Assembly (NCBI GenBank): GCA_963704755.1
Contig: OY969938.1
Location: 3,420,001 to 3,452,000, forward strand
Origin: an uncultured Chloroflexia bacterium
GTDB lineage: Bacteria; Chloroflexota; Anaerolineae; Anaerolineales; Anaerolineaceae
DNA length: 32,000 bases
Direction of reading: 5' to 3'
A program made the translations under genes and the position numbers. The notes beneath the pieces were generated by a model that was not told where the DNA came from, did not search any database, and saw nothing but the letters and a program-made list of their open reading frames with translations. Each line of letters begins with the position of its first letter. The stretch's first letter is position 1. Of the stretch, positions 1,657 through 29,747 are shown piece after piece.

Positions 1657-1715
1657 ATAAATTATGGGGTGTTTGGAAACGTGCTTAGCACGTTTCCAAA
1701 CACCCCATAATTTAT
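1657..1715. repeat. Hairpin family copy A: perfect 28-bp stem with 3-nt loop (tta)
   Basis: I checked base by base that 1657-1684 (ataaattatggggtgtttggaaacgtgc) is the exact reverse complement of 1688-1715. It lies 29 nt after the M50 stop and is followed by a ttttt run, so it may also act as a terminator. Confidence 0.9.
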
Positions 1716-1783
1716 AACTTTTTAGGGGGCTCTCTGAAAAGTAGATAGTGTTCTAAATACACAAATCAGTTATAATCCTGGTT

Positions 1784-2560
1784 GTGAACCTGTATTCGTT
1801 TTTTATCGGCCTGGGCGCTTCGTTAGGGCTGCTGCTGGTCGCACACCGCTCGCCGGAACGGGAGCAGCTCTCCTGGACGGGCGCCGGTTTGATCGTGCTG
1901 GCGGCCGGGCTGGCCGGTTCACGCCTGAACTTCATTATGCTGCACCCGGGGCTGTTCGCCGGTGGGCATTGGGCTGATGCGCTGGCGTTCTGGCAGGGCG
2001 GCCTGGCCTGGCCGGGCGGTCTGGTCGCGGCGCTGCTGGCCGTTTTCGTGATCGCCCTGGCGCGCCGCACGATCTTAGGCGTCACTGCGGACCGGCTGTA
2101 CCCGCTGCTCATCCCGCTGGCGGCAATGATCTGGCTGGCTTGCGGCCAGGCCGGTTTAGCCTACGGGAATGCCATGTCTGACCAGATCCCCTGGGCGCTG
2201 CCGGTTGTAGACGAGCATGCCCTGCTCACTTACCGCTGGCCGTTGCAGTACGTCGCTGCCGGCACGTTGGTGTTGGTCACCTGGTGGGTGGAGGGCCTGA
2301 CCAATAACGCCCGTGTACCAGGTTCACGGGCCTGCATTTGGGCGTTTTTCTTTGGTCTGCATACCTTGTTGTTTTCCTACTGGCGGGCTGACAGCGCCCC
2401 GGTGCTGGGCAGCCTGCGTCTGGACTATGTCGCTGCCATCGGTCTGGCCGCGATTAGCCTGGTGGGGCTGATCGGCATGGCCGTAATCCGGCTGCGCGGC
2501 TCTTTTTCGGATGACCCCGCCAGAGCCAACCGCGAATCCTGGTCCTCGCCGAAAGAATAA
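1784..2560 (+). CDS. Polytopic membrane protein, divergent prolipoprotein diacylglyceryl transferase (Lgt)-like
   Basis: GTG start. Multiple TM helices are present. FWQGGLAWPGGLVAALLA resembles the Lgt GGLxxHGG region, but other Lgt motifs are not clear. Confidence 0.5.
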   Translation: MNLYSFFIGLGASLGLLLVAHRSPEREQLSWTGAGLIVLAAGLAGSRLNFIMLHPGLFAGGHWADALAFWQGGLAWPGGLVAALLAVFVIALARRTILGVTADRLYPLLIPLAAMIWLACGQAGLAYGNAMSDQIPWALPVVDEHALLTYRWPLQYVAAGTLVLVTWWVEGLTNNARVPGSRACIWAFFFGLHTLLFSYWRADSAPVLGSLRLDYVAAIGLAAISLVGLIGMAVIRLRGSFSDDPARANRESWSSPKE

Positions 2561-2658
2561 GCCTGCCGGGCCCTGGCTCGCCGCGAGTTTTACCTCTCCA
2601 TTCTATTTTTGGTACCCCTATCCCAATATAACGAGGAAGGCCAATTATCCGGTCCGCT

Positions 2659-3522
2659 ATGAAAATTACCATCGCACTCGCGCAAATCAATACTGTTCTC
2701 GGGAACGTGCAGGCAAACCTGGAGAAACACCTGGAAATGATCGACCAGGCCCACGCCGCCGGCGCCGACCTGCTGGTCTTCCCGGAGTTGTCGCTGACCG
2801 GTTACGTGCTGCAAGACCTGGCTTCCAGTGTGGCGCACCGGCCCGTGATGGATGATCCCGTCTTTCAGCCGCTCCTGGCGGCTTCCCAAAAGCTGGACCT
2901 GATGGTCGGCTTTGTCGAGGAAGACACCCGCAACCGGTTTTTTATCGCGTCGGCTTACCTATCGCGCGGGCAGGTGGTTCACGTACACCATAAAGTCTAT
3001 TTGCCTACCTACGGTTTGTTCGATGAAAGCCGCTTCTTCGCCTGGGGCGATTCGGTCGCGGCCTTCGACACTCGCTTTGGGCGTTTTGGCATGCTGATCT
3101 GTGAGGATTTCTGGCACGCTTCTCCGCCTTACCTGCTCTGGCTGGACGGGGCCGATTTATTCCTGTTCGCCTCGGCCTCCCCTGGGCGGGGCCTGGGCGC
3201 GCAAGACCAGCTCGAATCGGCCCGCTGGGTCGATCACATCACCGGGGCTTACGCCAGCCTGTTCACCTCCTTTGTGGTCCATGCGAACCGGGTGGGGTAC
3301 GAGGATGGCTTGAATTTTTGGGGAGCCTCCTCGATCCACGACCCAAATGGGGACCTGGTGGTGCAGGGGCCTTATCACGAAGCGGCCCTGACCGTGGCTC
3401 AAATCGACCTGAACCAGCTCCACCGCACCCGCGCGCGCCTGCCCTTGCTGCGTGACGAGCGTACGGCCCTGGTCTCGCGTGAGCTGGGCCGCATCACCAT
3501 CAATCGTTCGAATGGCCGCTAA
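2659..3522 (+). CDS. Carbon-nitrogen hydrolase (nitrilase superfamily), probable glutaminase subunit of NAD synthetase
   Basis: The Glu-Lys-Cys triad contexts are present: FPELSLTGY, HHKVYLP, GMLICEDFWH. The gene lies immediately upstream of nadE. Confidence 0.8.
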   Translation: MKITIALAQINTVLGNVQANLEKHLEMIDQAHAAGADLLVFPELSLTGYVLQDLASSVAHRPVMDDPVFQPLLAASQKLDLMVGFVEEDTRNRFFIASAYLSRGQVVHVHHKVYLPTYGLFDESRFFAWGDSVAAFDTRFGRFGMLICEDFWHASPPYLLWLDGADLFLFASASPGRGLGAQDQLESARWVDHITGAYASLFTSFVVHANRVGYEDGLNFWGASSIHDPNGDLVVQGPYHEAALTVAQIDLNQLHRTRARLPLLRDERTALVSRELGRITINRSNGR

Positions 3523-5422: not shown

Positions 5423-5701
5423 CTGGTTGCCTCCCTGATACGTCGATGAATAGTCTGGTGGGTTCTGTGCGTGCGAAGATCCACCCCATAGATTAGAAAC
5501 CCAACTTTGCTTGTTTTTGTTAAGTTGTACGGATAAATGAAAAAGAAATTACTCGAATGGGACGCCCGGTGCCTGGTCGCATATTCCCCTTCCAACCAGG
5601 AAGATTACAAAGGATTTAAGGCTGTATTTTATAATTACCCCCGAAACAAGAGAAAACATGCCCCCTTTCGATCGTGCGATGAAATAACTGTGGATATGTA
5701 T

Positions 5702-5730
5702 AGTTTATGGGTTCGAATGAGGCCTGTCAA
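5702..5730 (-). promoter_or_regulatory. Candidate sigma70-type promoter (TTGACA-17nt-TAAACT) facing the 4493-5422 gene
   Basis: On the minus strand, TTGACA (5730-5725) is followed by a 17-nt spacer and TAAACT (5707-5702). This implies a 5' UTR of roughly 270 nt. Confidence 0.3.
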
Positions 5731-5804
5731 GTATTATTCGTTGATAATTCGTGACCACTCTGCTACTGCAAAAGTTAGAGGTGTTAGGTGCCTGTTTCGT
5801 CTGC

Positions 5805-6162
5805 CTGGCCGGCGTGAATCCGGTTTTGAAAGCCGGCCAGCGCGGCGGATCGGCGCCTGTGGGCGACCAAGGTCGCGGCAACAAGAGCACAAAGCCCGGC
5901 CTGCGCCGGGCTGAAAAGGAGACCCACCTTCGTGGGCCTTTGTGTGGTAGTAGGTGCAGCTTTAGCTGCCGCCGGTTGGGTCAGGTGTTCAGGTTAGCGG
6001 CCCGGGTTATTGCATACCAGCCGGGGTCTTCGATCTGCGTTGAAGAGCGGGCTCGGTCTGGAGCCCGGCCCGAACAATGGTTTGTTCGGGTTCGAACCCC
6101 AGGCTTTAGCGCTGTTTGAAAATTGCGCTTGCATAGGTTGGGTTCGGGCTCATCAAGAGCCT
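5805..6162. other. GC-rich multi-hairpin noncoding region (candidate structured RNA or REP-like hairpin cluster)
   Basis: At least 11 local stems are present, for example 5805-5813/5832-5840 (9 bp), 5894-5900/5905-5911, 5923-5927/5932-5936, 5956-5960/5965-5969, 6048-6054/6061-6067 and 6069-6077/6082-6090 (9 bp). CACAAAG (5888-5894) pairs with CTTTGTG (5938-5944) and encloses two hairpins, forming a 3-way junction. No ORF here has protein-like composition. Confidence 0.35.
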
Positions 6163-6306
6163 TGGCTAAATATCGGGCGTTTATCCGCCAAGATGTTGCC
6201 CTGGCCCAACAACGCATGTTTTGGAAAGAGTCCAGAGGGCAAGACCAGCCATAAATTTCGTATTTTCCTACCCCCCTTATCCCTGATTACGGATCTCCTG
6301 GTCTTC

Positions 6307-8223
6307 CTATTCCTGTTCGGCCAACTCGGCCCACTCATTCATGCATGTTTCGAGCTTGTGCTGGATATCGGTGTATTCCTGCCCCAGCCGGCTGACCTCG
6401 GCGGCGTCGCTGGGCGGGTTCTCCAGCCGGTTGGAGATTTGCGACAGGCGTGTTTCCAGGGCGGTGATTTCTTTCTCGACAGTCTGCAAGCGCTCGCGGC
6501 GCTGCCTTTCATTATTATTTACCTTATTATTTTTCCCATTCGAACTGCGCTGGCGCGGCTTTTCACTCTTTTCTATGACTTCAGTGGGTTTTTGGCTGGA
6601 CGCCAAAGCCGCCTCGGCCTGCAGGGCGCTTTTGTATTCGCTGTAAGCGCCGTCGAAAATGCGCAGCTCCTGGCGATCGGGCAAAACGTCCCAGACCTGG
6701 GTGGCCAGCGCGTCGATCAGGTAGCGGTCGTGCGAGACCAGGAGTATGGTGCCCTGGTAATCGCTGAGCAGCGATTGCAGGATTTCTTGCGAGGGCAAAT
6801 CCAGGTGGTTGGTCGGCTCGTCCAGCAGGAGCAGGTTGGTGCCTTGCAAGGCCAGGCAGGCCAGCGCCAGGCGGCCCTGCTCTCCGCCGGAGAGCAGTCT
6901 CACCGGTTTGAATACATCGTCGCCGGTAAACAGGAATTTGGCCAGGTAGTCGCGCGTCTCGGCCGGGAGCATGTTCGGTGCGACGGCCTCGATTTCTTCC
7001 AGGAGGGTGTAGTCGGCATGCAGCCCTTCGTGGGCCTGGGCAAAATAACCGATTTTCAGGGCGGCCCCCAGGCTGACCTCGCCGCCAAATGGCGGAATTT
7101 GCTCCAGCAGGGTTTTTAGGAAGGTGGTTTTGCCGGCGCCGTTCGGCCCAATCACGGCGGCACATTCGCCCCGTTTGAGGGTCAGGTCCGGCACATGGAA
7201 CAGCGGCCGGCCCTCGTCCAGGTAGCCGACACTTAAATCGTAGGTACGCATCACCAGGTCACCCGAGCGGCCGCTGGCCTGCAGGCGGAAGCGCATTTTG
7301 CGCGGCTCTTTGGGCGGGGCCAGCCGGGCTTCTTTCAACATCCGTTCCAGGCGCGTGCGCCGCCCCTGGGCCTGGCGGGTATTCTGCCCGGCAATGTTGC
7401 GGCGGATGTATTCTTCTTCTTTTTCGATGAATTCTTGCTGGGTCTGGTATTCGGCCAGTCGATTTTGGTAACGTTCCTGGCGCTGGTTGAGATAGGCCGA
7501 ATAATTGCCGCGGTAGACTTCCAGGGCCGGGCTCATTTCCCAGATGACCATGGCGACCTGGTCGAGGAAGTAGCGGTCGTGCGAAACGATCAGCACGGCG
7601 CCTTCCCAATCTTTCAGAAAGTTCTCCAGCCATTCGACCGCGGCGATGTCGAGATGATTGGTCGGCTCGTCCAGCAGGAGCAGGTCGGGGCTCGAAAGCA
7701 GCAGGCGGGCCAGCAGCGCACGGGTGCGTTGGCCGCCGGAGAGCTGTCCCAGGGGGCGGCGAAAATCGGATAAGGCAAATCCCAGGCCGGTCAGGGTCTG
7801 GCGGATGCGGGTTTCGTAGGTATAGCCGCCCAGCAGTTCGAATTCTTGCTGCAGCCGCCCGTAGGTCTCCAGGGCCGTATCGGCCTGCTGCGGGTCGGCC
7901 ATCGCGGTTTCCAGGCGGCTCAATTCGCCCTGGCGCTCGATCAACTCGCTGAAGGCAGTCATACACTCATCCCACAGGCTGCGATGAGAATCCAGCCGGG
8001 CCTCTTGCGGCAGGTAGCCCATACTGGTCCCGCGGGCGCTGTGGATCGTTCCCCCGGAAGGATCTTCCAGGCCCAGTAGAATTTTGAGCAGGGTCGTTTT
8101 GCCCACCCCATTGGAGCCAACCAGGCCGATCCTGGCCCGGTGAGGTATGCTCAGGCTGATATCGCTAAAGATATCCTCTGGCCCAAAGGACTTGGAGAGG
8201 TTGTTGGCAGTTAAAAGAGGCAT
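6307..8223 (-). CDS. ABC-F family ATPase (two ABC cassettes, no TM domain, C-terminal coiled coil)
   Basis: Two Walker A sites (GSNGVGKTT, GPNGAGKTT) and two signatures (LSGGQRTR, LSGGEQGR) are present. There is a charged interdomain linker and a K/N/R/E-rich C-terminal tail. Confidence 0.9.
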   Translation of the reverse strand: MPLLTANNLSKSFGPEDIFSDISLSIPHRARIGLVGSNGVGKTTLLKILLGLEDPSGGTIHSARGTSMGYLPQEARLDSHRSLWDECMTAFSELIERQGELSRLETAMADPQQADTALETYGRLQQEFELLGGYTYETRIRQTLTGLGFALSDFRRPLGQLSGGQRTRALLARLLLSSPDLLLLDEPTNHLDIAAVEWLENFLKDWEGAVLIVSHDRYFLDQVAMVIWEMSPALEVYRGNYSAYLNQRQERYQNRLAEYQTQQEFIEKEEEYIRRNIAGQNTRQAQGRRTRLERMLKEARLAPPKEPRKMRFRLQASGRSGDLVMRTYDLSVGYLDEGRPLFHVPDLTLKRGECAAVIGPNGAGKTTFLKTLLEQIPPFGGEVSLGAALKIGYFAQAHEGLHADYTLLEEIEAVAPNMLPAETRDYLAKFLFTGDDVFKPVRLLSGGEQGRLALACLALQGTNLLLLDEPTNHLDLPSQEILQSLLSDYQGTILLVSHDRYLIDALATQVWDVLPDRQELRIFDGAYSEYKSALQAEAALASSQKPTEVIEKSEKPRQRSSNGKNNKVNNNERQRRERLQTVEKEITALETRLSQISNRLENPPSDAAEVSRLGQEYTDIQHKLETCMNEWAELAEQE

Positions 8224-8319
8224 GAGGTACTCGCTACGGTGGGAAAGTATAACATGGGATGGATGGGGAAAAGAGAAAATAAAAAATACATAGCTGCACA
8301 GCTACCGGAAAAGGACGGA

Positions 8320-8370
8320 GTGTTTTTATTGTTTTTCACCTGCTTTGCACGTGAAAAACAATAAAAACAC
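8320..8370. repeat. Hairpin family copy B: perfect 20-bp stem plus TGC/GCA apex, ttt loop
   Basis: 8320-8339 (gtgtttttattgtttttcac) is the exact reverse complement of 8351-8370. It lies between the divergent starts of the ABC-F gene and the sensor kinase gene. Confidence 0.9.
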
Positions 8371-8484
8371 CCCAGCTTTTTGAACTGGCCAGAGCAATTA
8401 AAAAAATAGAGCAGAGAGAAAAGTGAGAAATTGGATTTTATTGTCCGGTTCAGGTAAAATGAACCTTGTTGAATTGATACCTAT

Positions 8485-10170
8485 ATGAATACACCTCCTC
8501 TGACCCGTGAACAACTCGAAGAGCGCCTGTTGGCGCTCCATAAAGCCAGCCTTGAGCTGGTTCAAGAAATATCCCTGGAAACCCTGCTGGAGCAAATCGG
8601 CCAGCTGGCCTGCGAGCAGGTCAAGGCGCGCTACGCTGCGGTAGGGGTGGTGGGGCCTTCCGGTGAGCTCGAATCCTTTATCCCAATTGGCATGACCGCC
8701 CACCAGGTAAAATTGACCGGCCATGCGCCCCAGGGACTGGGTTTGATCGGCGCATTGATGCACACCCGTGATCCGATCCGGCTCACGAACATGAACGCCG
8801 ATCCTCGCAGCGTGGGTGTTCCCAAACACCACCCGGCCATGAAGTCGTTTATGGGCGTGCCGATCTACCAGGGTACCCGCCAGCTCGGCCAGATCTACCT
8901 GACCGATAAGATCGATGCTCCCGAGTTTAGCCAGGACGACGAACTGCTCATCCAGATGTTGGCATCCTATGCGGCGGTGGCGATCACCAATGCCAACATG
9001 TACAAAGAGCTGATCCAGCGCGACAAGATTCTCACCCGCCGCAATGAAAACCTGGCCTTGTTGAACGAGCTGGCATCCATCCTGGCCACATCGTCGGATA
9101 TCGATCAAATCCTCGATAAAGCTCTGACCCAGGTGTTGGATTACCTGCAACTGGACGTCGGTGAGGTTTACCTGCGCCTGGAAAACAGCCGCCATCTCAA
9201 AATGGTCCTGCACCGCGGCCAGCAGGTGGACGCCATCTGGAACCGAGAGCAATATAACCTGGGAGAGGGTGTGATCGGCAAAGTGGCCAAGTCCAACCAA
9301 TCCCAATTGATCCCGTTCAAAGACTTTGCCGAGATCGATTTGAACCCGGATGTGACCAATGGCAATATCCATGAGATCGCCTGCCTGCCGATCAGCGGCC
9401 GGCGCGGTTCTTTAGGCGTGATGTGTGTGGCCTCGCGCCACCCGCGCGGGTTGGACGAACTGGAGATTCAATTCCTGTCCACCATCGGCACGTGGGTGGG
9501 TACGGCCATCGAAAACCTGCGCCTGAACCTGCAAGGCCAGCGCCTGGCCGTGCTGGAAGAACGCGAACGGATCGGCATGGATCTGCACGATGGCATCATC
9601 CAGTCGATTTACGCCGTCGGGTTGACCCTGGAACACGCCCGCTTGCTGGTCAAAGAGGATCCCCAGGGGATGGTCCAGCGCATCGAGCAGTCCATTTCTG
9701 ATTTAAACAGCACGATCCGCGATATCCGCGCCTATATCCTCGACCTGCGTCCGCGCCAGTTACAAAACGAAAATTTGATGCAGGGTGTGCGCCGGTTGGC
9801 GCTGGAATTCCGCGCCAATACGCTGCTGAGCGTCAACCTGCAGGGACCGGAAAACGAGCTGGCCAGCCTGCCGGATGCCCAGGCAATCGCCCTGTTCCAT
9901 ATTTGCCAGGAAGCCCTGGCCAACATCGCCAAACATGCCCGGGCGCGCACCGTCAGTGTGACTCTCTGGCAGGCTTCCGACCGGGCCCTGCTCGAAGTGA
10001 CCGATGATGGGCGGGGTTTCGACCCTGAAAAAATGCAACTGACCATCGGGCACGGCCTTTCGAACATGTACACGCGCGCGCGCAATGTCGGCGGAGACGT
10101 GGATATTACTTCCGAACCGGATTCGGGTACGACTATTTTAGCCTGGGTGCCTTTTTCTGATGAAGACTGA
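8485..10170 (+). CDS. Sensor histidine kinase with two GAF-like domains, HisKA_3 and HATPase_c
   Basis: It has the HisKA_3 H-box ERERIGMDLHDGIIQSIY. N/G boxes are present (EALANIAKHA, DDGRGF, GHGLSNM). There is no TM segment, so it is probably cytoplasmic. Confidence 0.9.
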   Translation: MNTPPLTREQLEERLLALHKASLELVQEISLETLLEQIGQLACEQVKARYAAVGVVGPSGELESFIPIGMTAHQVKLTGHAPQGLGLIGALMHTRDPIRLTNMNADPRSVGVPKHHPAMKSFMGVPIYQGTRQLGQIYLTDKIDAPEFSQDDELLIQMLASYAAVAITNANMYKELIQRDKILTRRNENLALLNELASILATSSDIDQILDKALTQVLDYLQLDVGEVYLRLENSRHLKMVLHRGQQVDAIWNREQYNLGEGVIGKVAKSNQSQLIPFKDFAEIDLNPDVTNGNIHEIACLPISGRRGSLGVMCVASRHPRGLDELEIQFLSTIGTWVGTAIENLRLNLQGQRLAVLEERERIGMDLHDGIIQSIYAVGLTLEHARLLVKEDPQGMVQRIEQSISDLNSTIRDIRAYILDLRPRQLQNENLMQGVRRLALEFRANTLLSVNLQGPENELASLPDAQAIALFHICQEALANIAKHARARTVSVTLWQASDRALLEVTDDGRGFDPEKMQLTIGHGLSNMYTRARNVGGDVDITSEPDSGTTILAWVPFSDED

Positions 10171-10882
10171 CCTTCCATCCGGCGATAAAGCCGGGTATGT
10201 ACAGGGCGTATTCACGCGCATCGCCCCGCGTTACGATTTGATGAACCGCTTGATGACCGGCGGGCAGGACGTGGCCTGGCGCCGGGAAGTGATCCGGCGG
10301 GCCCAATTGGCCCCGGGTGAACGCCTGCTCGACCTGGGCGCCGGCACCGGTGACCTGGCTCGGGAAGCTTTACGCGCCCAACCGGAATGCCAGGTGGTGG
10401 CCGCCGACTTTACCCTGGGAATGATGCAGGCCGGCCAGAAACGGCCAGGCGCAGCCCTGGACTGGTCCAGCGCCGATGCGCTGCACCTGCCGTTCCCCGA
10501 CCAGAGTTTCGATGCTATCGTTTCGGGCTTCCTGCTGCGCAACGTCAGCGACCTGCCCCTGGCCTTAGCCGAACAATACCGGGTGCTCAAACCGGGTGGG
10601 CGCATGGTCGCCCTGGATACCACCCGTCCGCCGGAACATTCGATCCTGACGCCTTTTATCCGCTTCCATATGCGCAAAATCATCCCCTGGATGGGCACGC
10701 TCATTTCCGGCCAGCGGGATGCCTATTTGTACCTGCCCAGTTCCAGCGAGGCCTTCCTGACGGCCGAAAGGCTGGCCGCTACCATGGCTGCGGTGAACTT
10801 TCGCCAGGTGGTCTTTGTGCGCCGGATGGGCGGCACGATCGCCATCCACTGGGGACGCAAACCGGCCGAGCCCGGGCCGTAA
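10160..10882 (+). CDS. menG: UbiE/MenG-family demethylmenaquinone/ubiquinone C-methyltransferase
   Basis: VFTRIAPRYDLMNRLMTGGQDVAWRRE is the characteristic UbiE/MenG N-terminal motif. LDLGAGTGD is the SAM-binding motif. The ATG at 10160 overlaps the kinase stop (10168-10170). Confidence 0.85.
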   Translation: MKTDLPSGDKAGYVQGVFTRIAPRYDLMNRLMTGGQDVAWRREVIRRAQLAPGERLLDLGAGTGDLAREALRAQPECQVVAADFTLGMMQAGQKRPGAALDWSSADALHLPFPDQSFDAIVSGFLLRNVSDLPLALAEQYRVLKPGGRMVALDTTRPPEHSILTPFIRFHMRKIIPWMGTLISGQRDAYLYLPSSSEAFLTAERLAATMAAVNFRQVVFVRRMGGTIAIHWGRKPAEPGP

Positions 10883-10892
10883 GGGGGAATAT

Positions 10893-11408
10893 AAACCACG
10901 GAGGCACGGAGTTCACGGAGAAAAGAAAGAGAAGAAGAGAGACTATTTTAAAAACGCCTCGTCGTAGGGTGCGTTTGAGGGCTGACTTCCCTGGCAATGG
11001 CGAACCATCAGGCTATATGCCCACATCGCCGTGCCCGGAATGCACCATCGCGGCGCTGACTTTACAAATAAAATACGGAAGCACGGAGAAAATTTTCTAG
11101 AAGAACAATGCCATAGGGTGGGTGCAGGGTTCATTTATGACGCCGGCAACCTGCACACAGGCAAGGCCTACGAAACCTTGCCCGTACCCCACCATCTTGA
11201 CATCTCGGTGGGTTACGGGCAATTCCCGGGTTGGGACACCTGCTCTTTGTTCGCGAGCGTTGCTGATGAGCCCTGCACCCACCCTACAGCGCTGCGGTAA
11301 ATTTTCCTGGCCGGCCGATCCGCTTTGGGCTAGTTTTTTGGACAGTAATTTCTCTTTGTGTTTCTTATTTAAAAACTCTTCTCCGTGAACTCCGTGCCTC
11401 CGTGGTTT
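10893..11408. repeat. Composite palindromic element bounded by perfect 30-bp inverted repeats made of CACGGAG units
   Basis: I checked base by base that 10893-10922 (aaaccacggaggcacggagttcacggagaa) is the exact reverse complement of 11379-11408. More CTC(C/T)G(C/T)G units follow at 11415-11438, and an internal CACGGAG lies at 11071-11077. Confidence 0.85.
11113..11287. repeat. Internal inverted-repeat pair with (G/A)TAGGGTG heads (REPIN-like)
   Basis: ATAGGGTGGGTGCAGGGTTCAT (11113-11134) matches the reverse complement of 11266-11287 (GTAGGGTGGGTGCAGGGCTCAT) at 20 of 22 positions. The interior contains further stems, for example GGCAAGG/CCTTGCC and TTGCCCGTACCCCACC...GGTGGGTTACGGGCAA. Confidence 0.8.
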
Positions 11409-11489
11409 TATCTTCTCCGCGTCCTCTGCGTCTCTGCGGTGAAATTAAATACCCACAATTAACCAAAAAGTTTGCCTAATCGAGACAGC

Positions 11490-14302: not shown

Positions 14303-14338
14303 TCCAGACTGGGAAATCCAGGCGTCAGGAGGAGTGTT

Positions 14339-16173: not shown

Positions 16174-16193
16174 CGTCTTGTGGGAGGTATCCT

Positions 16194-17803: not shown

Positions 17804-17812
17804 AGATTTTAG

Positions 17813-17837: not shown

Positions 17838-17914
17838 TTGGGGTGAGGGAGAAGCGCCGGCCGTCTCAAATTCCCGTTGGGTTACGGGCAAAGCCGGGCA
17901 AAAACGAAAGCGAT

Positions 17915-19362: not shown

Positions 19363-19653
19363 ATGATCGATCGCCTGGCCACTGATTTTGTAAATACACG
19401 TCGCGCTAACCGGATCGACTGGGAACGACCGGTCACTATTGTGGAACCGGTGCAGGTTTCTGGCAAAACGATCAACGTCAGCGCCGTGGGTATTCTGCTC
19501 TCGACGGATAAAAATGCCAGCCTGCAATTAGGCGGCCCAATCGCCCTGGACATCCCGCACATGGAAGGGGATGATTCGATTGTGGTCCATGGCCAGATTG
19601 TGCGCCTGGAGAAGACCCACAGCGATTTACGCGTGGCTGTTAACCTGGCGTAG
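19363..19653 (+). CDS. PilZ domain protein (single domain, 96 aa)
   Basis: An RxxxR motif (TRRANRIDWER) and an N-x-S-x-x-G motif (NVSAVGILL) are present at PilZ-like spacing. A GGAGAAAAG Shine-Dalgarno lies upstream. Confidence 0.75.
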   Translation: MIDRLATDFVNTRRANRIDWERPVTIVEPVQVSGKTINVSAVGILLSTDKNASLQLGGPIALDIPHMEGDDSIVVHGQIVRLEKTHSDLRVAVNLA

Positions 19654-19679: not shown

Positions 19680-19735
19680 GGGGTGTTTTATTATTTTTCG
19701 CGTGCGAAGCGCGCGAAAAAATAATAAAACACCCC
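19680..19735. repeat. Hairpin family copy C: stem of about 26 bp with one bulged A, gaa loop
   Basis: ggggtgttttattatttttcgcgtgc pairs with gcgcgcgaaaaaataataaaacacccc. It lies 27 nt after the PilZ stop and is followed by tctttttt, so it looks like a terminator. Confidence 0.9.
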
Positions 19736-19795: not shown

Positions 19796-20809
19796 GTGGT
19801 TATAATTTCCTTCGTGAAAAGCCGAATCGTTCTTATCTTCCTGCTTCTCCTGGGGGGAATATTGTTGTTTGTGCCGCGGTCGGTGCCGGTGCAGGCCCAG
19901 GCCGGCAGCGCCTCTGACCTGATCGGGGCAGTCAATGCCTTTCGCGCCGCCAATGGGCTGGAGCCTTATACCGTGGACGGCGACCTGATGAGTAAAGCCC
20001 AGGCCCAGTCAGAATACCAGGCTACGGTGGGTACCTGTACCCACCAGCGTGCGGACGGCAGCGGCCCGGGTGACCATGGCATCGCGTCCGAAAATGTGGC
20101 CTGCGGGCCGGGATTGTCGGTCTCGGATGCCATCTACGACCAGTGGACCGATTTATTGCACAGCGCGACTATGCTCGGACCGGATGCCGGTGTGGTCGGC
20201 GCCGGAGTGGCCACCTCGGGCGATAATGTCTTCTATACCCTGGACGTGAATGCCACCCAGGGCAACTTTGCCTACCGCCAGCCGCTTTCTGCGACGGACA
20301 TTGCCGCCGAGACCGCGGGTATTTCACCACCGCCGCTGCCAACGCTTGCGGGGCCGATCATCACATCCACCCCGGCGGACGACGGCTCGGTGGCCCACGT
20401 CATTCAATATGGCGAAACTCTGGAAGAGATCGCCAACGCTTATGGCGTGACCCTGAATGACCTGTTTGCCCATAACGCCAGCCTGAACCCGGATAACCCG
20501 GCCTATTATGCCGGCCAGGTACTGATCATCAAATCACCTTATACGGCCACCCCGGAGCCCAGCCTGACGCCGACACAACCGACTGCCACGCGCACGCCTC
20601 GGCCAACCCACACCCCCACCCGAGTTCCTTCGGTGACCCCCACCGCCACCTCCTCTCCCACACCTACGGCGACTTCTGTGCTGACCGTGATTGGTTTGGG
20701 CACCCCGAGCGCTGACCGAAAGGCTGCCGGTTATGGACTGGTGGCATTGTGTGCGGTCGGGTTGATTTTCTTGTTCGTGAAGGGCTTCCGCAAGGGCAGC
20801 CCGGGATAA
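19796..20809 (+). CDS. Secreted and anchored CAP/SCP (YkwD-like) domain plus LysM domain protein with a Pro/Thr-rich linker and C-terminal TM helix
   Basis: It has a signal peptide, a CAP-like segment (LIGAVNAFRAANGLEPY...), a LysM segment (HVIQYGETLEEIANAYGVTLNDLFAHN...GQVLIIK), a PT-rich region and a TM helix (GYGLVALCAVGLIFLFV). An alternative GTG start exists at 19814. Confidence 0.8.
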   Translation: MVIISFVKSRIVLIFLLLLGGILLFVPRSVPVQAQAGSASDLIGAVNAFRAANGLEPYTVDGDLMSKAQAQSEYQATVGTCTHQRADGSGPGDHGIASENVACGPGLSVSDAIYDQWTDLLHSATMLGPDAGVVGAGVATSGDNVFYTLDVNATQGNFAYRQPLSATDIAAETAGISPPPLPTLAGPIITSTPADDGSVAHVIQYGETLEEIANAYGVTLNDLFAHNASLNPDNPAYYAGQVLIIKSPYTATPEPSLTPTQPTATRTPRPTHTPTRVPSVTPTATSSPTPTATSVLTVIGLGTPSADRKAAGYGLVALCAVGLIFLFVKGFRKGSPG

Positions 20810-20855
20810 CCCGGCGGTCGCCTTTCTGCCCGAACCGGAAAGATTGGAAAAATTG

Positions 20856-21365
20856 ATGAGCGATTCTGTCTCTCGTGATATCGAAAAAACCAGTTTAGCC
20901 CCTTGTCCGTACTGCGGGGCTGCCGGTATGGGGGGGTATGAAGGTTGCAGCGAAACGTTGGAAAAGATTATGGCCCGTTTTCTGGGGAGACCGGGCTTCT
21001 CATATTTCTATGCCACACAACGCGCGCTGGTGGACTGTTACGGATTGCAGCACCCCGAGATTCACTGCGTTTCGGTCGAATCTTATGCCTCGCACCTGGC
21101 GGGGATATGTGTTTTCCTGCTCTATGATGGCCGCCGGTACATTTATAACGCAGTCGAGCGCTGGCTGATGGATGCCGGCGAACTCGTCCGGCCGGAAACG
21201 CCGGAGTTCCGGGGCAAAATGACTATAACGGACCTGCTGGACGTCAAGGACCCGCCTGACCTGCAAAGCCGGGTCAGCCGTTGGGCCGAAGACGTCTGGT
21301 CGGCCTACGCCAATATGCACAACCTGGCCTTCACCTGCGTCGAATTGGCGATGGAACGGGGTTAG
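20856..21365 (+). CDS. Hypothetical cytoplasmic protein with N-terminal CPYCG motif
   Basis: The composition is protein-like. I prefer the ATG at 20856 to the TTG at 20844. I do not assert a family from memory. Confidence 0.6.
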   Translation: MSDSVSRDIEKTSLAPCPYCGAAGMGGYEGCSETLEKIMARFLGRPGFSYFYATQRALVDCYGLQHPEIHCVSVESYASHLAGICVFLLYDGRRYIYNAVERWLMDAGELVRPETPEFRGKMTITDLLDVKDPPDLQSRVSRWAEDVWSAYANMHNLAFTCVELAMERG

Positions 21366-21374: not shown

Positions 21375-21421
21375 GTAATTATGGTTATTTGCGTGCTACG
21401 CACGCAAATAACCATAATTAC
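21375..21421. repeat. Hairpin family copy D: perfect 22-bp stem, tac loop
   Basis: I checked base by base that 21375-21396 (gtaattatggttatttgcgtgc) is the exact reverse complement of 21400-21421. It lies between convergent genes. On the minus strand it is immediately preceded by ATAGGGT. Confidence 0.9.
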
Positions 21422-21447: not shown

Positions 21448-21759
21448 TTATCTTCTAAAGCGGCGGGCTAAGGCGTTGATTTGCTCGATGAGAGCCTGCC
21501 ATTGGCTGGGAATGTCGGATTCGTCCAACTCGACCGAGCGAGCCTGCTTTCCCATCTCGATGGTCAAAGAATAATGAAAACGGTCGGCTCCGCCGCCCTT
21601 CTCGGAAGTGGAGCTGATCTCTGTATCGAAGAAGTTGCTCGATTCCAATAAATCGGCCAACTGGCGGGCTTCTTGCGGATCGAGCCGGTTGGAATCGATC
21701 ACGGTTCGCAGGGTCATGCCGGCAAAACCACCGCTGCGTTCTATCCGAATGATCATCAC
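21448..21759 (-). CDS. Emfourin-like protein inhibitor of protealysin-type M4 proteases
   Basis: It is about 100 aa with an IERSGGFAG N-terminal motif. It lies directly downstream of the M4 protease gene and overlaps it (GTGATG overlaps the TGA stop), as in protealysin operons. Confidence 0.65.
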   Translation of the reverse strand: MMIIRIERSGGFAGMTLRTVIDSNRLDPQEARQLADLLESSNFFDTEISSTSEKGGGADRFHYSLTIEMGKQARSVELDESDIPSQWQALIEQINALARRFRR

Positions 21760-22876
21760 ATCCCCAGGGCCTTTTTGACCGAATTGAAGCAGCCCGAGCC
21801 GGACCCGTCGCTGGGGGTACCTACGGTAATCCCTACCCCGGCCCAGGCGTGATCAACGGCCTGTTGTTCCAGGCTGTTGTCGCCGTACAGCGTACCGGCG
21901 GCCTGGTGGGTAAGGTTGGCAGCGCCTTGAAAATCGGTGGTGGGTTGGATCAGGTCGCGCAGGGTAATGTACCAGATCTGGCCGGCTTTCTCCCAGGCGT
22001 TGCCACCGATCTCGATGGCGGCCAGGTAGAAGGCCTTGTTGGGGATGCCCGAGTTGATGTGTACACCGCCGTTATCGCTGGTGGTGTGGTTGTAATCGCT
22101 CATATTGGCGGGCTGGGGGTCTTTGCCCAACACCGGGTCGTCGTAAGCCGTGCCGGGCGCTTTCATCGAGCGGATGCCGACACCGTGCACATTGGCGGTA
22201 AATAGGCCTTCGCCAATAATCCAATCGGCCTGGGCAGCGCTTGGCCCAGGCTGTACTGCTTGACCAGGCTTCCGAAAACGTCCGAGAAGGATTCGTTGAG
22301 CGCGCCGGGCTGGTTGGAATAGATCAGCCCGCCTTCGAATTGGGTGACCCCGTGGGTGAGCTCGTGGCCGATCACATCGATGGCGATGGTAAAGCGGTTA
22401 AACAGTTGCTGGTCCGGCGGCAGGCCTTCGTCGCCGTCGCCGTAAACCATTTGCTGGCCGTTCCAAAAGGCGTTTTCGTAATTCTGGCCGTAATGGACGG
22501 TCGAGTCGATGGTCATACCGGCGTTGTCGATTGAGTTGCGCTGGTAGATATTCCAATACAGGTTGTAGGTGGCGCCGGCGCCATTGTAGGCTTCATTTAC
22601 CGTTACATCGGCGCCGTCAGGGTCGCCTTCGGAGCGCACCAATTGGCCAGGCAAATTGGTGCTGTGATTGGTTGTATAAACGCGCCGCTGCAAGTTGGTG
22701 TTGAGCGTTACCCGAGGCGCGGCCGCCAGGGCGGTGGCTTCCAGGCGTTCGGAGCGGAACTGGGCCGTCACCTGGGCGGTCTGGATATACCGCTCTTTTT
22801 GAGAGTCACTGCCGTTTTGGGCAATCTGATCGAATATATGGGGAGGGAGAACGCACGAGATGGAACCTGCTTTCAT
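21756..22876 (-). pseudogene. Protealysin-like M4 (thermolysin-family) metallopeptidase interrupted by a 1-nt frameshift
   Basis: The upstream ORF carries the CVLPPHIF propeptide motif, HELTHGV (HExxH) and GALNESFSDVFG. The downstream ORF carries RSMKAPGTAYDDPVLGKDPQP and GGVHINSGIPNKAF. The frames join at about 22238-22243 as ...KQYSLGQ/(S)AAQADWIIGEGLF. The total span of 22912-21756 is 1157 nt, which is 3n+2. Confidence 0.85.
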
Positions 22877-23115
22877 GAGATTTGCAACCTCCTTTGGTTG
22901 GCATGCTTCCAATCCGAGTTTGATCTGATTTTGGCTACAAAACCGCTGTCCGGCCGGGTTAAAAATGGCGTCCGGTTAGCCAGCCTCCGGGAACGGGCTG
23001 TTCCAGGCTGATCGAGTTCGGCTGGGATAAGTGCTATCCGCCTGTGGATGGGTTTGGGCAAGCTGGTTACGTTGAAATCGGCAGTCCCTTATCGCGGTAC
23101 GTCGCCGGTGTGTTT

Positions 23116-25328: not shown

Positions 25329-25344
25329 GCGTTGAAATGCACTT

Positions 25345-25534
25345 GTAGGGTGCGCTTTAGCGCACCTTAATCCGCTTGGCTATTAATATCTATGGGTATC
25401 AAAGGATAAGCTTGTGGTAGGGTTGCTGCCTCAAAAAAATTCGCTTTATCAATTCTTGACCAAACATAGAAAAATGTGAAAGCCTAAAATCTTTACCTGC
25501 CCATGTTTTAACGGTGCGCTAAAGCGCACCCTAC
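25345..25534. repeat. REP doublet (REPIN-like): two identical 22-nt GTAG-headed REPs in inverted orientation
   Basis: GTAGGGTGCGCTTTAGCGCACC at 25345-25366 is the exact reverse complement of 25513-25534. Each has a GTAG head and a 7-bp stem (GGTGCGC/GCGCACC) with a TTTA loop. The doublet ends 58 nt from the 3' end of the RAYT gene. Confidence 0.8.
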
Positions 25535-25592
25535 GAGTTAGTATTGTAGAACAGTTGACCCGTTCACTCTGATTACTTTTTTATTAAATGAG

Positions 25593-26141
25593 TTACTCGC
25601 CAAATGAATCCGAACTTGGGAGTGTAATATCGCTACCCCAGTCTGGCTCGTATAAACCTAGTTGAACGTACCGGTGGAAACTGGACCAGGGCCAATCGCG
25701 GACAGATTGGACGAGGCCATGTTTGACCGGGTTGTAATGAATGTAGTCGAGATGGGCGTAGTAATCATCTTCATCGCGAATCATATGGTCCCAGAACCGG
25801 CGCTGCCAAATCCCGGTTTCCCGGCGCTTTGTGCGTGACTTTGTAGGTGTCCGCTCTTTTCCCTGGTATTCGCGATAAAACCTTGAGAAAAGGGCTTTGA
25901 TATAACGCCAGCGGATGGAATAGTCAAAATCTTCTTCGGGCAAATTCCATGTGCAGTGGATGTGCTCGGGCAGGAGGCAAATTGCGTCCATTTCAAACGG
26001 ATATTTCTCTTGAGTAATTTGGATTGCGTTTCTCAGCGCCTCGCGACTCTGGGGAGTGGTAAGGATAGGTATCCTTTGCCAGGTCACAATGGTAAAGAAG
26101 AACAATCCCCCTCGAAACATTGGCCGGGTGTAGTTTGGCAT
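25593..26141 (-). CDS. REP-associated tyrosine transposase (RAYT; IS200/IS605-like Y1 HUH enzyme)
   Basis: It has the HUH motif (LPEHIHCTW) and the catalytic Tyr region (HLDYIHYNPVKHGLV). The N-terminal GGLFFFTIVT strand is present. The size of 182 aa and the adjacent GTAG-headed REPs also fit. Confidence 0.85.
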   Translation of the reverse strand: MPNYTRPMFRGGLFFFTIVTWQRIPILTTPQSREALRNAIQITQEKYPFEMDAICLLPEHIHCTWNLPEEDFDYSIRWRYIKALFSRFYREYQGKERTPTKSRTKRRETGIWQRRFWDHMIRDEDDYYAHLDYIHYNPVKHGLVQSVRDWPWSSFHRYVQLGLYEPDWGSDITLPSSDSFGE

Positions 26142-26604: not shown

Positions 26605-27270
26605 ATGATTTCTCCCTCAAAGGATACCGAAGCGGGCTATTCAGCCTGCCTGCCGGAATTCCTGGACGCTTTCGACCGGGACCTGGCGCGCTGGCGGCCT
26701 ATCCTGGTGGAGCGCTATGGGGACGATTCCGCGGACCTGGTCTCGCACGAAAGCCGGGAGGAATTCATGCGCCTGGTGCCCCTCATCCCATACATTGGCG
26801 GGCAAGACGACTGGCTGGATGCGCTGATGGAATCGGTGCGCTGCCTGGCCTTGTACCATGCCATGAAGCATCACGGCAAGACGGCGGAGGAAACCGGCCG
26901 GGTCGTGTACGAGGCCGTCCTGGCGCGGGCGGATGAGCCGCGGCCGGCGATCCCACCGGGTCAGCAGTTGGCGCCGACTCAGTTGATGGCCAGGCGCCGG
27001 GAGCGGGCGGAGCGCACCCAAGAGCGCCGCTACGGGCAGGGTTACGTGTGCGAATTCGTGCCCGGCGACGGCCAGAATTTTGATTATGGCTATAACTTCA
27101 CCGAATGTGCGGCCCAAAAGTTTTACCAGGCTCAAGGCGCCGCTGAATTCTTGCCTTCCTTCTGCGCGCTCGACTTTGCCTACAGCCAGGTATTTGGCCT
27201 GGGACTGACCCGCACCATGACCCTGTCGGCCGGCCAGCCGGTCTGCAATCACCGTTTCAAGTCGGGATGA
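26605..27270 (+). CDS. L-2-amino-thiazoline-4-carboxylic acid (ATC) hydrolase-family protein
   Basis: The C-terminal pattern FTECAAQKFYQAQGAAEFLPSFCALDFAYSQVFGLGLTRTMTLSAGQPVCNHRF resembles the Cys-containing signature of that family, as far as I remember it. Confidence 0.6.
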   Translation: MISPSKDTEAGYSACLPEFLDAFDRDLARWRPILVERYGDDSADLVSHESREEFMRLVPLIPYIGGQDDWLDALMESVRCLALYHAMKHHGKTAEETGRVVYEAVLARADEPRPAIPPGQQLAPTQLMARRRERAERTQERRYGQGYVCEFVPGDGQNFDYGYNFTECAAQKFYQAQGAAEFLPSFCALDFAYSQVFGLGLTRTMTLSAGQPVCNHRFKSG

Positions 27271-27335
27271 AGCTGGCCTGGTAAATTCTTGAACATCAGA
27301 AACTTTCGTAACCGTTCAGGCCAGTTTTAGGGGAA

Positions 27336-27390
27336 GGGTGATTTTGTTATTTTTTGCGTACTTCGCACGCGAAAAATAACAAAATCACCC
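27336..27390. repeat. Hairpin family copy E: 26-position stem with one G-T pair and one mismatch, ttc loop
   Basis: gggtgattttgttattttttgcgtac (27336-27361) pairs with gcacgcgaaaaataacaaaatcaccc (27365-27390). Confidence 0.9.
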
Positions 27391-27445
27391 TCTTCGTCCG
27401 GGAAAACTGAGTAGTTCAAACTGCCTAACCAGGGCCGATAAAAGT

Positions 27446-27478
27446 AAAAGCCTCGGCTGGTATCAGCCGAGGCTTTTT
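27446..27478. terminator. Canonical bidirectional intrinsic terminator
   Basis: AAAA-GCCTCGGCTG (27450-27459) is followed by the loop gtat and CAGCCGAGGC (27464-27473)-TTTTT. It lies 18 nt downstream of the minus-strand gene stop at 27496. Confidence 0.75.
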
Positions 27479-27495: not shown

Positions 27496-28935
27496 TTACT
27501 GGCCCTTTACCAGGGTTTCTACCAGGTCCTGGACCTTCTCACGCGACAGGTTGCTCCACAACAGGAAGCTCTCTCCGTTAGGCGCCACCAGCATGCCCCC
27601 GACACCGTTGCTGCCGGATTGGTCATAGTACAGCACCAGGCCGGACGCCGCTTTATAGGAGCCATTGGTGAAGCTCGATTGGACAAAGCCGAGGTCTTCC
27701 TGGCCAATAGCCTGCATATTGAAGTTGTCGCCGTTGGGGTTATTGTAGTGGATCTCGAAGGCGAACGGCTGGTCCGCGGGTTGGCCGCTGGCTGCGCCGA
27801 TCTCCTGGGTATAGCCGGATGGAATTGGATTCAGGACGTAGAAGTCGCTTGTGCGCGACGCCAGCTCATCCTGCGTCAGAGTCTCAAAGGTGACGTTGTC
27901 CTGCGTGTCTGCCTGGTCTGTCTCAGGAGCGTCCACGACTTTGACGCCTTTCAAATCACTCAGATCCCAGGCCACCGAGCTGCCTTCCGGCAGGATTTTG
28001 TCCGTCAGCCATTGGATATCGTCGATGACCACATCCTTGCCGTCTTTGCGTACGGTGATTTGCCTTTCGACCAGTTGGTAAGTATCGGCATTGAAAACCA
28101 TACGCAGCGAGCCGAGGTAGGTCTGGGTGTCCGACCCCTTCTGGCTCTGGTAGCTGTCATCCACCAGAACGTAGACCGTGCTGCCATCCGTCCAGGTCTT
28201 TTTACCCTCGACCTTCACGTGCGGGTCATTGCGGAATTCATCGAAGAATGTTTGGGCTTCGGCGTAAGGACCTGCGGCTGCGGTTCCCCGCAAGGACGCG
28301 GTTGCCTGCTGCTTTTCCGGGCTGATCTTCTCGCGAATTACCGTCAAGGTATCGCCGCTTGTATTGTCCAGCGAATACGTGTAAGTCCCATCAGAAGAAC
28401 TGGCGTCCAAAATGTTTCCGGCAGGATCATACGTCACCCTGTGGTCATAGCCATTGGCCAGGTCCAGATAATCTTCGATGATCGTTGTTATTCCGGTACT
28501 GTCGGAGACGACGGCCTGGTGGTTTTCGAAAACCTGCATGCGCGTGTACCAGATACCCTGGCTGGGCGCAGGGGTGGATTGGGCCGCGGCGGCGCGGTCG
28601 AGGATTTGTTGCGCCGAGACGGTATTGACCTTGCTAATCGTGAACACGGCCGCTACGGCCATGACTATCACGATTGCGAGAGCAGCGAACTTGCTTTGGA
28701 GTTTCATTGTTTTGAATATCCTTTCGAAGAAATTTACGTTCCACCCTATGAGACGTCGTTTTTCTTCTTGGGATACGGCTGGGGCCAGCATTTGCGCCTG
28801 CGTGAGGAAATTTGCCCGGCCTCTGGCCTGGGCCTGCGGATCGCGGGCTGGGGCGTCAGCCAGCTTATTCAGCAGGTTCTGGATATCAGCATCGTCGCGA
28901 TCATTCAATTGAGCCACAGTTCTCCTCCGAGTCAT
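27496..28935 (-). CDS. Putative anti-sigma factor / membrane protein with a large extracytoplasmic domain
   Basis: It is co-oriented with the ECF sigma gene and overlaps it. A cytoplasmic N-terminus of about 90 aa precedes one TM helix (FAALAIVIVMAVAAVFTI) and an outside domain of about 380 aa. The start is uncertain: ATG at 28935, or GTG at 28917 preceded by GGAGGA. Confidence 0.6.
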   Translation of the reverse strand: MTRRRTVAQLNDRDDADIQNLLNKLADAPARDPQAQARGRANFLTQAQMLAPAVSQEEKRRLIGWNVNFFERIFKTMKLQSKFAALAIVIVMAVAAVFTISKVNTVSAQQILDRAAAAQSTPAPSQGIWYTRMQVFENHQAVVSDSTGITTIIEDYLDLANGYDHRVTYDPAGNILDASSSDGTYTYSLDNTSGDTLTVIREKISPEKQQATASLRGTAAAGPYAEAQTFFDEFRNDPHVKVEGKKTWTDGSTVYVLVDDSYQSQKGSDTQTYLGSLRMVFNADTYQLVERQITVRKDGKDVVIDDIQWLTDKILPEGSSVAWDLSDLKGVKVVDAPETDQADTQDNVTFETLTQDELASRTSDFYVLNPIPSGYTQEIGAASGQPADQPFAFEIHYNNPNGDNFNMQAIGQEDLGFVQSSFTNGSYKAASGLVLYYDQSGSNGVGGMLVAPNGESFLLWSNLSREKVQDLVETLVKGQ

Positions 28936-29476
28936 AGATTTTCTCCTTCTTCGGCAGCAACATGCGTCGCAGTGCCTCGATGGCACGGTGCTGCAATGAC
29001 TTTACGGTACCCAGCGGTTTTTCCAATACCTGAGCTACCATCTCGTTTTCCCAGCCTTCCAGGTATTTCAAAGTGATCACCTGGCGTTGGTCGGGCGTAA
29101 GACGCACCAGGGCAGCCTGTACCTGCTCTTTTTGCAGGTTGTTTATGACGGTTTCGACCAGGTTGTCTTCCCCATCCAGCATCTCGTCGATCAGTTGCAG
29201 TGGGGGCGGGGGATTCCGGCGGTAGAGATCCGTGATGCGGTTGTGGGCAATGCGGTACAGGTAGGCTTGCAGATGGTCCCGCGGCCCGCCGCCGTTACGC
29301 AGGGCCTGCAAAAAACGCGTAAAGGTGTCTGCCGTGCAGTCCTCGGCCTGGTGTGGGTCGCCCAACAGGTGCAGCGCATAGCGATAAATGCCCAGGCTGT
29401 AGCGGTCGTAAATCTCAGCCAGGGCGTCCATTTCAAAACAAAGGGCGCGTTCGATCAATTCGCTTTCAGGAGTCAT
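28901..29476 (-). CDS. ECF-type sigma-70 family RNA polymerase sigma factor
   Basis: Region 2 (YRYALHLLGDPHQAEDCTADTF) and the region 4 HTH (LTPDQRQVITLKYLEGWENEMVAQVLEKPLGTVKSLQHRAIEALR) are present. I prefer the ATG at 29476. Confidence 0.85.
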   Translation of the reverse strand: MTPESELIERALCFEMDALAEIYDRYSLGIYRYALHLLGDPHQAEDCTADTFTRFLQALRNGGGPRDHLQAYLYRIAHNRITDLYRRNPPPPLQLIDEMLDGEDNLVETVINNLQKEQVQAALVRLTPDQRQVITLKYLEGWENEMVAQVLEKPLGTVKSLQHRAIEALRRMLLPKKEKIYDSEENCGSIE

Positions 29477-29690
29477 GAATAAAGGTACCGGGTAATCACC
29501 CAGGCTCAAATTTGAGGTTCTTTCCCATCCGGATGCGTACAGCCTCTATGCATATATGACGCACCACCGGCTCGAGGGATACGGGTAATCGAGGTGGAGA
29601 ATCTCCGGGTTTGATTGCCCCAGAGGCGAATATTGATGATACCAGTGAAATACGGTTATTCTGCGTAATTACTCAGCTATCGTAAAAGAG

Positions 29691-29747
29691 AGGTGTTTTT
29701 ATATTTTTTTCGCGAGCAAAGCACACGAAAAAAATATAAAAACACCT
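29691..29747. repeat. Hairpin family copy F: 22 perfect bp plus an imperfect GC apex, aaa loop
   Basis: aggtgtttttatatttttttcgcgagc (29691-29717) pairs with gcacacgaaaaaaatataaaaacacct (29721-29747) at 25 of 27 positions. It lies between the divergent sigma-factor and GT-C-like genes. Confidence 0.9.

Follow-up and report, generated by a model that had tools for sequence, protein, structure and literature searches.

Long, dispersed palindromic hairpins with covarying arms in the genome of an uncultured Anaerolineae bacterium

In a 32-kb stretch of the genome of an uncultured Chloroflexia bacterium belonging to the Anaerolineae (contig OY969938.1, positions 3,420,001 to 3,452,000; hereafter the window), six sites between genes carry very long hairpins, which we designate A to F. 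Four of them (B, C, E, and F), and probably also A and D, descend from one sequence that was copied to unrelated intergenic sites, and relatives of this family exist in at least one other environmental genome. Our preferred interpretation, which we hold tentatively and with slightly less than even confidence, is that the six sites represent a lineage-restricted class of non-coding palindromic ("foldback") repeats of about 47-80 bp, which resemble repetitive extragenic palindromic (REP) sequences and MITEs (miniature transposable elements with inverted repeats) and are maintained at the level of DNA. The copy counts given below cover the window and the loci recovered by a pattern scan of metagenomes.

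A dispersed family of long hairpins

The window was scanned for inverted repeats, and the hairpins were folded as single-stranded DNA, with 200 shuffles for each. The six highest matches of the scan are hairpins A to F, where a first-pass annotation of the same sequence had placed them; none is assigned to a strand. Hairpin A (1657-1715) is a perfect 59-nt palindrome with a stem of 28-29 bp, the loop TTA, and 29-nt arms that are 100% complementary; its base is TAAATTATGGGGTG and its apex is ACGTGC-TTA-GCACGT. Hairpin D (21375-21421) has a perfect 22-bp stem, the loop TAC, and the apex TGCGTGC-TAC-GCACGCA. The core of hairpin B (8320-8370) forms 23 of 24 pairs around the loop TTT, and an imperfect extension (AAAAG/CTTTT) carries it out to 8309-8381. 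Hairpin C (19680-19735) has a stem of about 26 bp with one bulged A, the loop GAA, and the apex GCGAAGC, and directly past it lies TCTTTTTTG. In hairpin E (27335-27391), A·C and T·G mismatches of the 25-bp stem adjoin the loop, which is effectively 7 nt long, or 3 nt long if one A·C mismatch is accepted. Hairpin F (29690-29748) has a lower stem that is perfect over 22 bp, an imperfect apex (CGCGAGC-AAA-GCACACG), and a 1-nt insertion that is matched in both arms.

The first-pass annotation had described stems of 20-28 bp with 3-nt loops and had called the pairing perfect in A, B, and D. On folding, the stems measure 22-29 bp and the loops 3 nt in all copies except E, and the pairing is perfect in A and D, but not in B, which has one mismatch near its loop. 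The common architecture that it proposed, with a GG(G)TG...CA(C)CC base, an A/T-rich mid-stem, and a G/C apex, holds with some variation at the base: GGGTG...CACCC is present in A, C, E, and F, it is degenerate in B, and only its right side (CACCC) is found in D. The mid-stems of all six are A/T-rich, and each apex is close to CGTGC-NNN-GCACG.

These hairpins are far more stable than expected by chance. Their DNA fold energies range from -21 to -32 kcal/mol, with z-scores of -15.1 (A), -8.2 (B), -9.5 (C), -10.3 (D), -11.7 (E), and -9.9 (F), and none of the 200 shuffles was as stable. The block-shuffled window contains about 1.35 hairpins of at least 10 bp, none of them as long as A-F. When stems of at least 18 bp were counted with one mismatch allowed, there were 4 in the 32 kb of the window and 5 in 22 kb of L110, a syntenic contig of a relative, whereas 801 kb of unrelated bacterial DNA (the background) contained 8 and other Anaerolineae loci, over 145 kb, contained 2; the density in the window is about 10-20 times that of the unrelated DNA. 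All six lie between genes that Pfam or NCBIfam supports, as the first-pass annotation had stated and as is characteristic of REPs. An assembly artefact was considered and rejected, since the hairpins are found again in assemblies made independently, short-read contigs of the Joint Genome Institute (JGI) among them. The six hairpins are real, intergenic, and statistically robust.

In a 57-nt alignment of hairpins B, C, E, and F, the column identity is about 81% and the consensus is GGGGTG-TTTTTATTGTTTTT-CGCGTGC-NNN-GCACGCG-AAAAACAATAAAAA-CACCCC; judged from this alignment, the four clearly constitute one sequence family. To fit hairpin A, each arm needs a 9-nt gap that matches the one in the other arm; A, D, and a hairpin of the relative, L110_I2, can be aligned to the family only with such matching gaps. 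The alignment suggests that A and D are probably diverged members with matching deletions in both arms.

The first-pass annotation had recommended a pattern scan beyond the window, and such a scan did find further copies. With only the base and the T/A runs fixed, and the apex and mid-stem left free, the metagenome scan returned nine loci, including two clear relatives from the same sample: L111 (1065-1147), with a perfect 39-bp stem, and L114 (228-304). The stems of these two measure 35-39 bp, and the outer motif TAAAT(N0-2)GGGGTG is common to A, L111, L114, and the L110 hairpin at 560-630. We did not accept L112, L113, L115, and L117-L119 as members, these matches being imperfect or unrelated. 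Another locus selected by the pattern, L116, has 28% GC, encodes cytochrome f and ribosomal protein L20, and thus appears to be a green-algal chloroplast contig; we take it as a parallel and not as a relative. It carries long hairpins at 854-900, 1278-1347, 2610-2667, 2861-2917, 3140-3194, and 3241-3292, with the common base TGGGTG(T/A)TTT...AAA(T/C)CACCCA and copy-specific stems as in the window family, a likeness that may be coincidental, one of the six having been selected by the search pattern itself.

A covariance model, R1, recovers the family (B 76.8, D 42.7, E 79.9, and F 67.7 bits), yet it scores any long hairpin and therefore does not discriminate family membership. In a scan of a genome collection, a half-hairpin pattern gave at least 109 chance matches, none of which was palindromic among the matches listed, and a scan of viral contigs gave no match. 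There were no Rfam matches at gathering thresholds, and below them only look-alikes to A/U-rich microRNA precursors appeared. The literature on Chloroflexi terminators, palindromic repeats of Anaerolinea, and bacterial foldback or stem-loop families yielded no description of these hairpins. The first-pass annotation, too, had recognized no described family, and the hairpins form an undescribed repeat family.

The architecture, consisting of a very long stem, a 3-nt loop, and a GC-NNN-GC apex, extends beyond this sequence family. L110, whose ABC-F, PilZ, and M50 proteins are 79%, 83%, and 62% identical to those of the window, contains seven long hairpins in 22 kb, with stems of 15-35 bp, the longest of them perfect (560-630, 6188-6260, 8184-8242, 11997-12051, 15469-15522, 17574-17618, and 20315-20348). 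Their sequences are unrelated to each other and to those of the window; most of them nevertheless have the GC-NNN-GC triloop apex, and it is this apex, shared despite unrelated stems, that makes the architecture wider than the family. When only hairpins of 15 bp or more are counted, 8/10 from the window and L110 combine a 3-nt loop with GC-NNN-GC, as against 0/19 from the background and 0/3 from other Anaerolineae loci. A more distant relative (67%), L122, has perfect palindromes of 31 bp (8318-8383) and 24 bp (14408-14459), which fill the whole spacer between convergent stop codons and have even-length centres with no 3-nt spacer. Long hairpins were absent from the Anaerolineae loci L120, L123, L125, L126, and L127, and from L128 and its near-duplicate L129. 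At one syntenic position, between the convergent GerE and YibE/F genes, the window has two adjacent ordinary hairpins of 11-12 bp (17777-17803 and 17811-17839; C-rich/G-rich), and L110 has a single perfect 28-bp palindrome.

Covariation of the two arms

In the alignment of the six sequences, 93.2% of cells pair (Watson-Crick or G·U). When the 3' arms are swapped among copies, pairing drops to 82.8 +/- 1.7%, and in a slid register it falls to 42-61%. Change on both sides is seen in 10/28 pairs, and 0/500 shuffles reach the observed values. The first-pass annotation had proposed that both arms changed together within each copy, and had named stems that fail to covary in an alignment of many copies as evidence to the contrary. 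The alignment shows strong covariation, and the joint changes include both matching indels and transversion pair flips, T-A to A-T and C-G to G-C.

The kind of change is informative. Pair flips cannot pass through a wobble intermediate and therefore point to a process at the DNA level. G·T accounts for 2 of the 11 non-Watson-Crick cells, which is the proportion expected by chance, and there is no G·T enrichment. The mismatches lie 2-5 bp from the loop, and the mid and outer stem are perfect. Taken together, the pair flips, the chance-level G·T, the matching indels, and the mismatches near the loop argue for the DNA level rather than for stepwise compensation in RNA. A single event of template switching during replication is known to create perfect stems and to fix "compensatory" changes of several bases (PMC8794818, PMC7202029). 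Copying that starts at the apex, by a nascent strand folded back on itself, and runs outward would be expected to cluster the mismatches near the loop, and we infer that it accounts for their distribution.

These observations suggest the following scheme for the foldback repeats. The unit that is copied and maintained would be the single-stranded hairpin itself, nucleating at its G/C apex with the 3-nt loop, GC-NNN-GC. Its arms would be kept complementary mainly by template switching within the hairpin (quasipalindrome correction) during replication; with one arm rewritten from the other, each copy could drift in sequence and stay paired. Copies would persist where they are tolerated, mostly at the 3' ends of genes and occasionally in 5' spacers, and those at 3' ends may double as RNA 3'-end or terminator hairpins. 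The mobilising activity is not encoded inside the repeat.

Several points weigh against this interpretation. The covariation statistics are those of only six sequences, and selection for hairpin stability would also give perfect stems with tolerated mismatches at the apex. All seven long hairpins of L110 lie just past stop codons, which also fits a function at the 3' end. The same is true of orthologous 3' ends that bear sequence-unrelated hairpins in both genomes: the PilZ coding regions of the window and L110 can be aligned as far as their stop codons, beyond which the sequences are unrelated, and L110 has at this place a 35-bp hairpin unrelated to hairpin C; the spacer between the M50 gene and lgt likewise contains a hairpin in both genomes. 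The analysis yielded no candidate mobilising enzyme. Finally, no consistent direct repeat of at least 3 nt, as a target-site duplication would leave, was found at the ends of nine copies with boundaries allowed to vary by +/-6 nt, a weak negative, the boundaries of palindromes being ambiguous.

Gene ends, terminators, and the RAYT gene

Hairpins A, C, D, and E begin 10-65 nt past stop codons. A lies 29 nt past the stop of an M50 peptidase gene (867-1628, +), with lgt (1784-2560, +) downstream, and C lies 27 nt past that of the PilZ gene (19363-19653, +). D is placed between the convergent stops of a DUF5946 gene (20844-21365, +) and an emfourin gene (21448-21759, -), and E is 65 nt past the stop of an ATC_hydrolase-like gene (26605-27270, +). 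Hairpins B and F occupy divergent spacers: B between the starts of the ABC-F gene (8223, -) and a GAF histidine kinase gene (8485, +), and F in a 526-nt spacer between the starts of an ECF sigma factor gene (29509, -) and a gene at 30036 (+). A small open reading frame (ORF) ending beside B or F was looked for, and none was found. The flanking genes are ordinary housekeeping genes, and the nearest named homologues of the ABC-F protein come from Bellilinea and Anaerolineaceae.

Some features of this neighbourhood are recorded here in their own right. Hairpin B lies at the left edge of an 8-kb block (8224-16193) between the ABC-F gene and a trypsin-PDZ protease gene, which are adjacent in L110; the block contains genes for the GAF histidine kinase, a UbiE-type methyltransferase, an aldehyde dehydrogenase, a leucine-rich repeat (LRR) protein, and a WD40 protein. 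Just upstream of the emfourin inhibitor gene, a thermolysin-like M4 peptidase (21756-22912) is split over the overlapping ORFs 22163-22912 and 21756-22190 (-), which could reflect a frameshift, decay to a pseudogene, or an indel introduced in assembly. A gene for a PIN-domain protein (31632-31976), at the window's right edge, may encode the toxin of a toxin-antitoxin pair.

The positions past stop codons raise the possibility that the hairpins are mainly RNA elements, that is, unusually long factor-independent terminators or mRNA-stabilising 3'-end hairpins with selection acting on the RNA stem, and that they resemble one another as a family because a terminator module was occasionally duplicated. 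We regard this as rather unlikely, although a good deal fits it: besides A, C, D, and E, gene 3' ends are the site of all seven long hairpins of L110 and of three of L122, which often take up the entire spacer between convergent stops; runs of T5-6 follow A, B, and C within 0-6 nt; and hairpins are kept at orthologous 3' ends while their sequence is replaced. However, no T-tract follows D, E, or F, and the family hairpins have the T-rich arm before the G/C apex and the A-rich arm after it, opposite to the arrangement in a bidirectional terminator. The lack of G·U enrichment and the frequent transversion pair flips do not suit selection on an RNA stem either. A canonical bidirectional terminator, AAAAGCCTCGGCTG-GTAT-CAGCCGAGGCTTTT, is present at 27446-27477, only 55 nt from hairpin E, and its stem, GCCTCGGC, is kept after the orthologous gene in L127 (7198-7230), even though the two proteins are only 56% identical. 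Relatives terminate with normal hairpins of 11-14 bp; the redundancy of E with this conserved terminator indicates that such terminators work in this lineage as well as in its relatives. The first-pass annotation had noted that the stems are far longer than those of ordinary terminators, and at 22-29 bp they indeed are, and they also exceed known REPs. Since B and F lie in divergent spacers with no upstream gene end and E stands beside a conserved terminator, the hairpins are not simply terminators, and a role in termination or stabilisation is plausible as a secondary use rather than as their defining property.

Quite unlikely, in our estimate, is an origin of most long hairpins on the spot by mutation, in which snap-back of the nascent strand at a GC-NNN-GC microhomology is followed by its extension, possibly favoured by weak palindrome surveillance of the SbcCD type, with B, C, E, and F as the exception that was also copied. 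Long palindromes are normally removed by SbcCD (PMC3733652), and template switching can create a perfect stem in a single event (PMC8794818). The stems of L110 and L122 are unique in sequence, the GC-NNN-GC apex is common to stems and GC is self-complementary, the ends of the 3-nt loops are mostly non-complementary, and stems are perfect out to the adjoining stop codons, all of which fits this origin. Alone, it cannot explain four dispersed copies of one sequence and two more in another genome; nor could an orthologous site with only one arm be demonstrated, the spacers being too diverged. A broader possibility, which we consider unlikely, is that some Anaerolineae (the genome of the window, L110, and partly L122) carry an unrecognised class of hairpins defined by structure and by the GC-NNN-GC triloop. 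Its basis would be either mobilisation that recognises structure, following the logic of attC sites and integrases, or a lineage-specific growth of palindromes by snap-back and template switching at gene ends. If this is true, either process would produce perfect palindromes of 20-40 bp, about one every 4-8 kb, a load that would not be tolerated by most bacteria.

The first-pass annotation had also implied a link to a REP-associated tyrosine transposase (RAYT), which is encoded in the window at 25593-26141 (-; NF047646, E = 7e-55). According to this idea, the hairpins are expanded, atypical REPs that are mobilised as single-stranded DNA by this RAYT or by a paralogue elsewhere in the genome. 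The link is not supported, in that the RAYT has REPs of its own and its homologues lie at loci with no long hairpins. Directly past its 3' end, a doublet at 25341-25538 contains two identical inverted REPs of the classical type, GTAGGGTGCGCTTTAGCGCACC, one at 25345-25366 (+) and the other at 25513-25534 (-), their 26-nt arms being separated by 146 nt; each is a 22-nt GTAG-tagged element with a 7-bp stem, the doublet resembles a REPIN, and no REP was found on the 5' side of the gene. RAYT homologues in two other Anaerolineae contigs (L125 and L126; 56-58% identity) are flanked by the same GTAGGGTGCG-type REP, and within 10 kb on each side of them (20 kb per locus) there are only ordinary hairpins of 9-15 bp and no long ones. 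A GTAG tag beside the stem, present in the bona fide REPs of the doublet, is missing from A-F, L111, and L114, and GTAG is essential or important for RAYT activity (PMC8266576). The stems of GTAG REPs measure 5-13 bp (PMC3733652), as against 22-39 bp here. The long hairpins do not flank the RAYT gene as the repeats of a REPtron would, the nearest being 1.2 kb away with two genes in between. It is, therefore, most probably its own short GTAG REPs that this RAYT serves. At 5949-5972, downstream of the ORF at 5537-5914, there is a degenerate REP-like sequence, GTAGGTGCAGCTTTAGCTGC, which probably arose by decay of a copy of the same REP.

Mobilisation of the long hairpins by a RAYT is accordingly very doubtful. 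We keep it in consideration at all because the base of the hairpins resembles that of the cognate REP (TGGGGTG versus TAGGGTG) and some RAYTs tolerate an altered GTAG, such as GTGG (PMC8266576). Specifically, (T/A)TGGGGTG...CACCCC recalls GTAGGGTGCGC...GCGCACC, and hairpin E reads GAAGGGTG, a 7/8 match to GTAGGGTG. Moreover, a RAYT is present in the window, and REPs of group 3 can be perfect palindromes with 3-nt loops (PMC8266576).

Significance and relation to known systems

If confirmed genome-wide, these foldback repeats would offer a clear example from nature of bacterial repeats that are dispersed and keep their pairing while their sequence drifts. The pair flips and matching indels, with no wobble intermediates, point to copying from arm to arm in DNA over selection on RNA, which bears on how perfect stems arise and on how far "compensatory" covariation proves RNA function. 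Confirmation would further imply that long palindromes at high density are tolerated, or actively generated, by some Chloroflexi, which raises questions about SbcCD-type surveillance and the construction of gene ends in a poorly studied phylum. Such hairpins would mislead predictors of terminators, small RNAs, and microRNA-like precursors.

Like intrinsic terminators, hairpins A, C, D, and E are G/C-rich and stand shortly past stop codons, and A, B, and C are followed by T-runs. Unlike terminators, their stems are 2-4 times longer, the A and T tracts around the apex come in the opposite order, 5' spacers of divergent genes contain two of the copies, and ordinary terminators coexist with them (27446-27477). 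With the attC sites of integrons they share a conserved architecture with free sequence, complementary arms specific to each copy, a position just past ORFs, and a folded single strand as the active form of attC. However, they lack the R''/R' core sites (RYYYAAC/GTTRRRY), having GGGTG.../...CACCC ends instead, as well as the pattern of extrahelical bases and a cassette array, and no integron integrase was found among the annotated genes of the window. Quasipalindrome correction and template switching (the models of Ripley and Lovett; Monttinen & Loytynoja 2022) explain multi-base "compensatory" changes, matching indels, and perfect stems made in one event, but they describe a mutational mechanism and not a family of elements, and they leave the dispersal of one sequence unexplained.

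MITEs and foldback elements, such as Correia, ERIC (enterobacterial repetitive intergenic consensus), and the MITEs of Coxiella, are likewise non-autonomous, dispersed, and intergenic; their inverted repeats reach the centre of the element, and they can fold as a long RNA or DNA hairpin. As is required of a MITE, one sequence occurs in several dispersed copies (B, C, E, F, L111, and L114). The hairpins differ from MITEs in their length (about 50-80 bp, as opposed to 100-400 bp) and in their most constant part, which is the GC-NNN-GC apex and not the termini. To our knowledge, there is no parent insertion sequence (IS) whose ends match the hairpins; an IS with GGGTG(T/A)TTT ends was not seen in the window, although no search was aimed at one.

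REPs and REPINs are also short, non-coding, extragenic, dispersed palindromes that fold as single-stranded hairpins. Gene 3' ends are the usual location of REPs, which may have an influence on termination or on the stability of the mRNA (PMC3733652). Our hairpins depart from them in lacking a GTAG (or CGTC) tag, in not flanking the RAYT gene, which has its own GTAG doublet, in having copy-specific mid-stems whose arms coevolve, and in the length of their stems (22-39 bp, compared with 5-13 bp in REPs and 16 in SMAG). It is the SMAG REPs of Stenotrophomonas maltophilia (group 3), with a perfect stem, 16-nt arms, and a 3-nt loop (PMC8266576), that come closest in form. The nearest known kind of element is, in short, the REPs, especially those of the SMAG type, and the MITEs come next.

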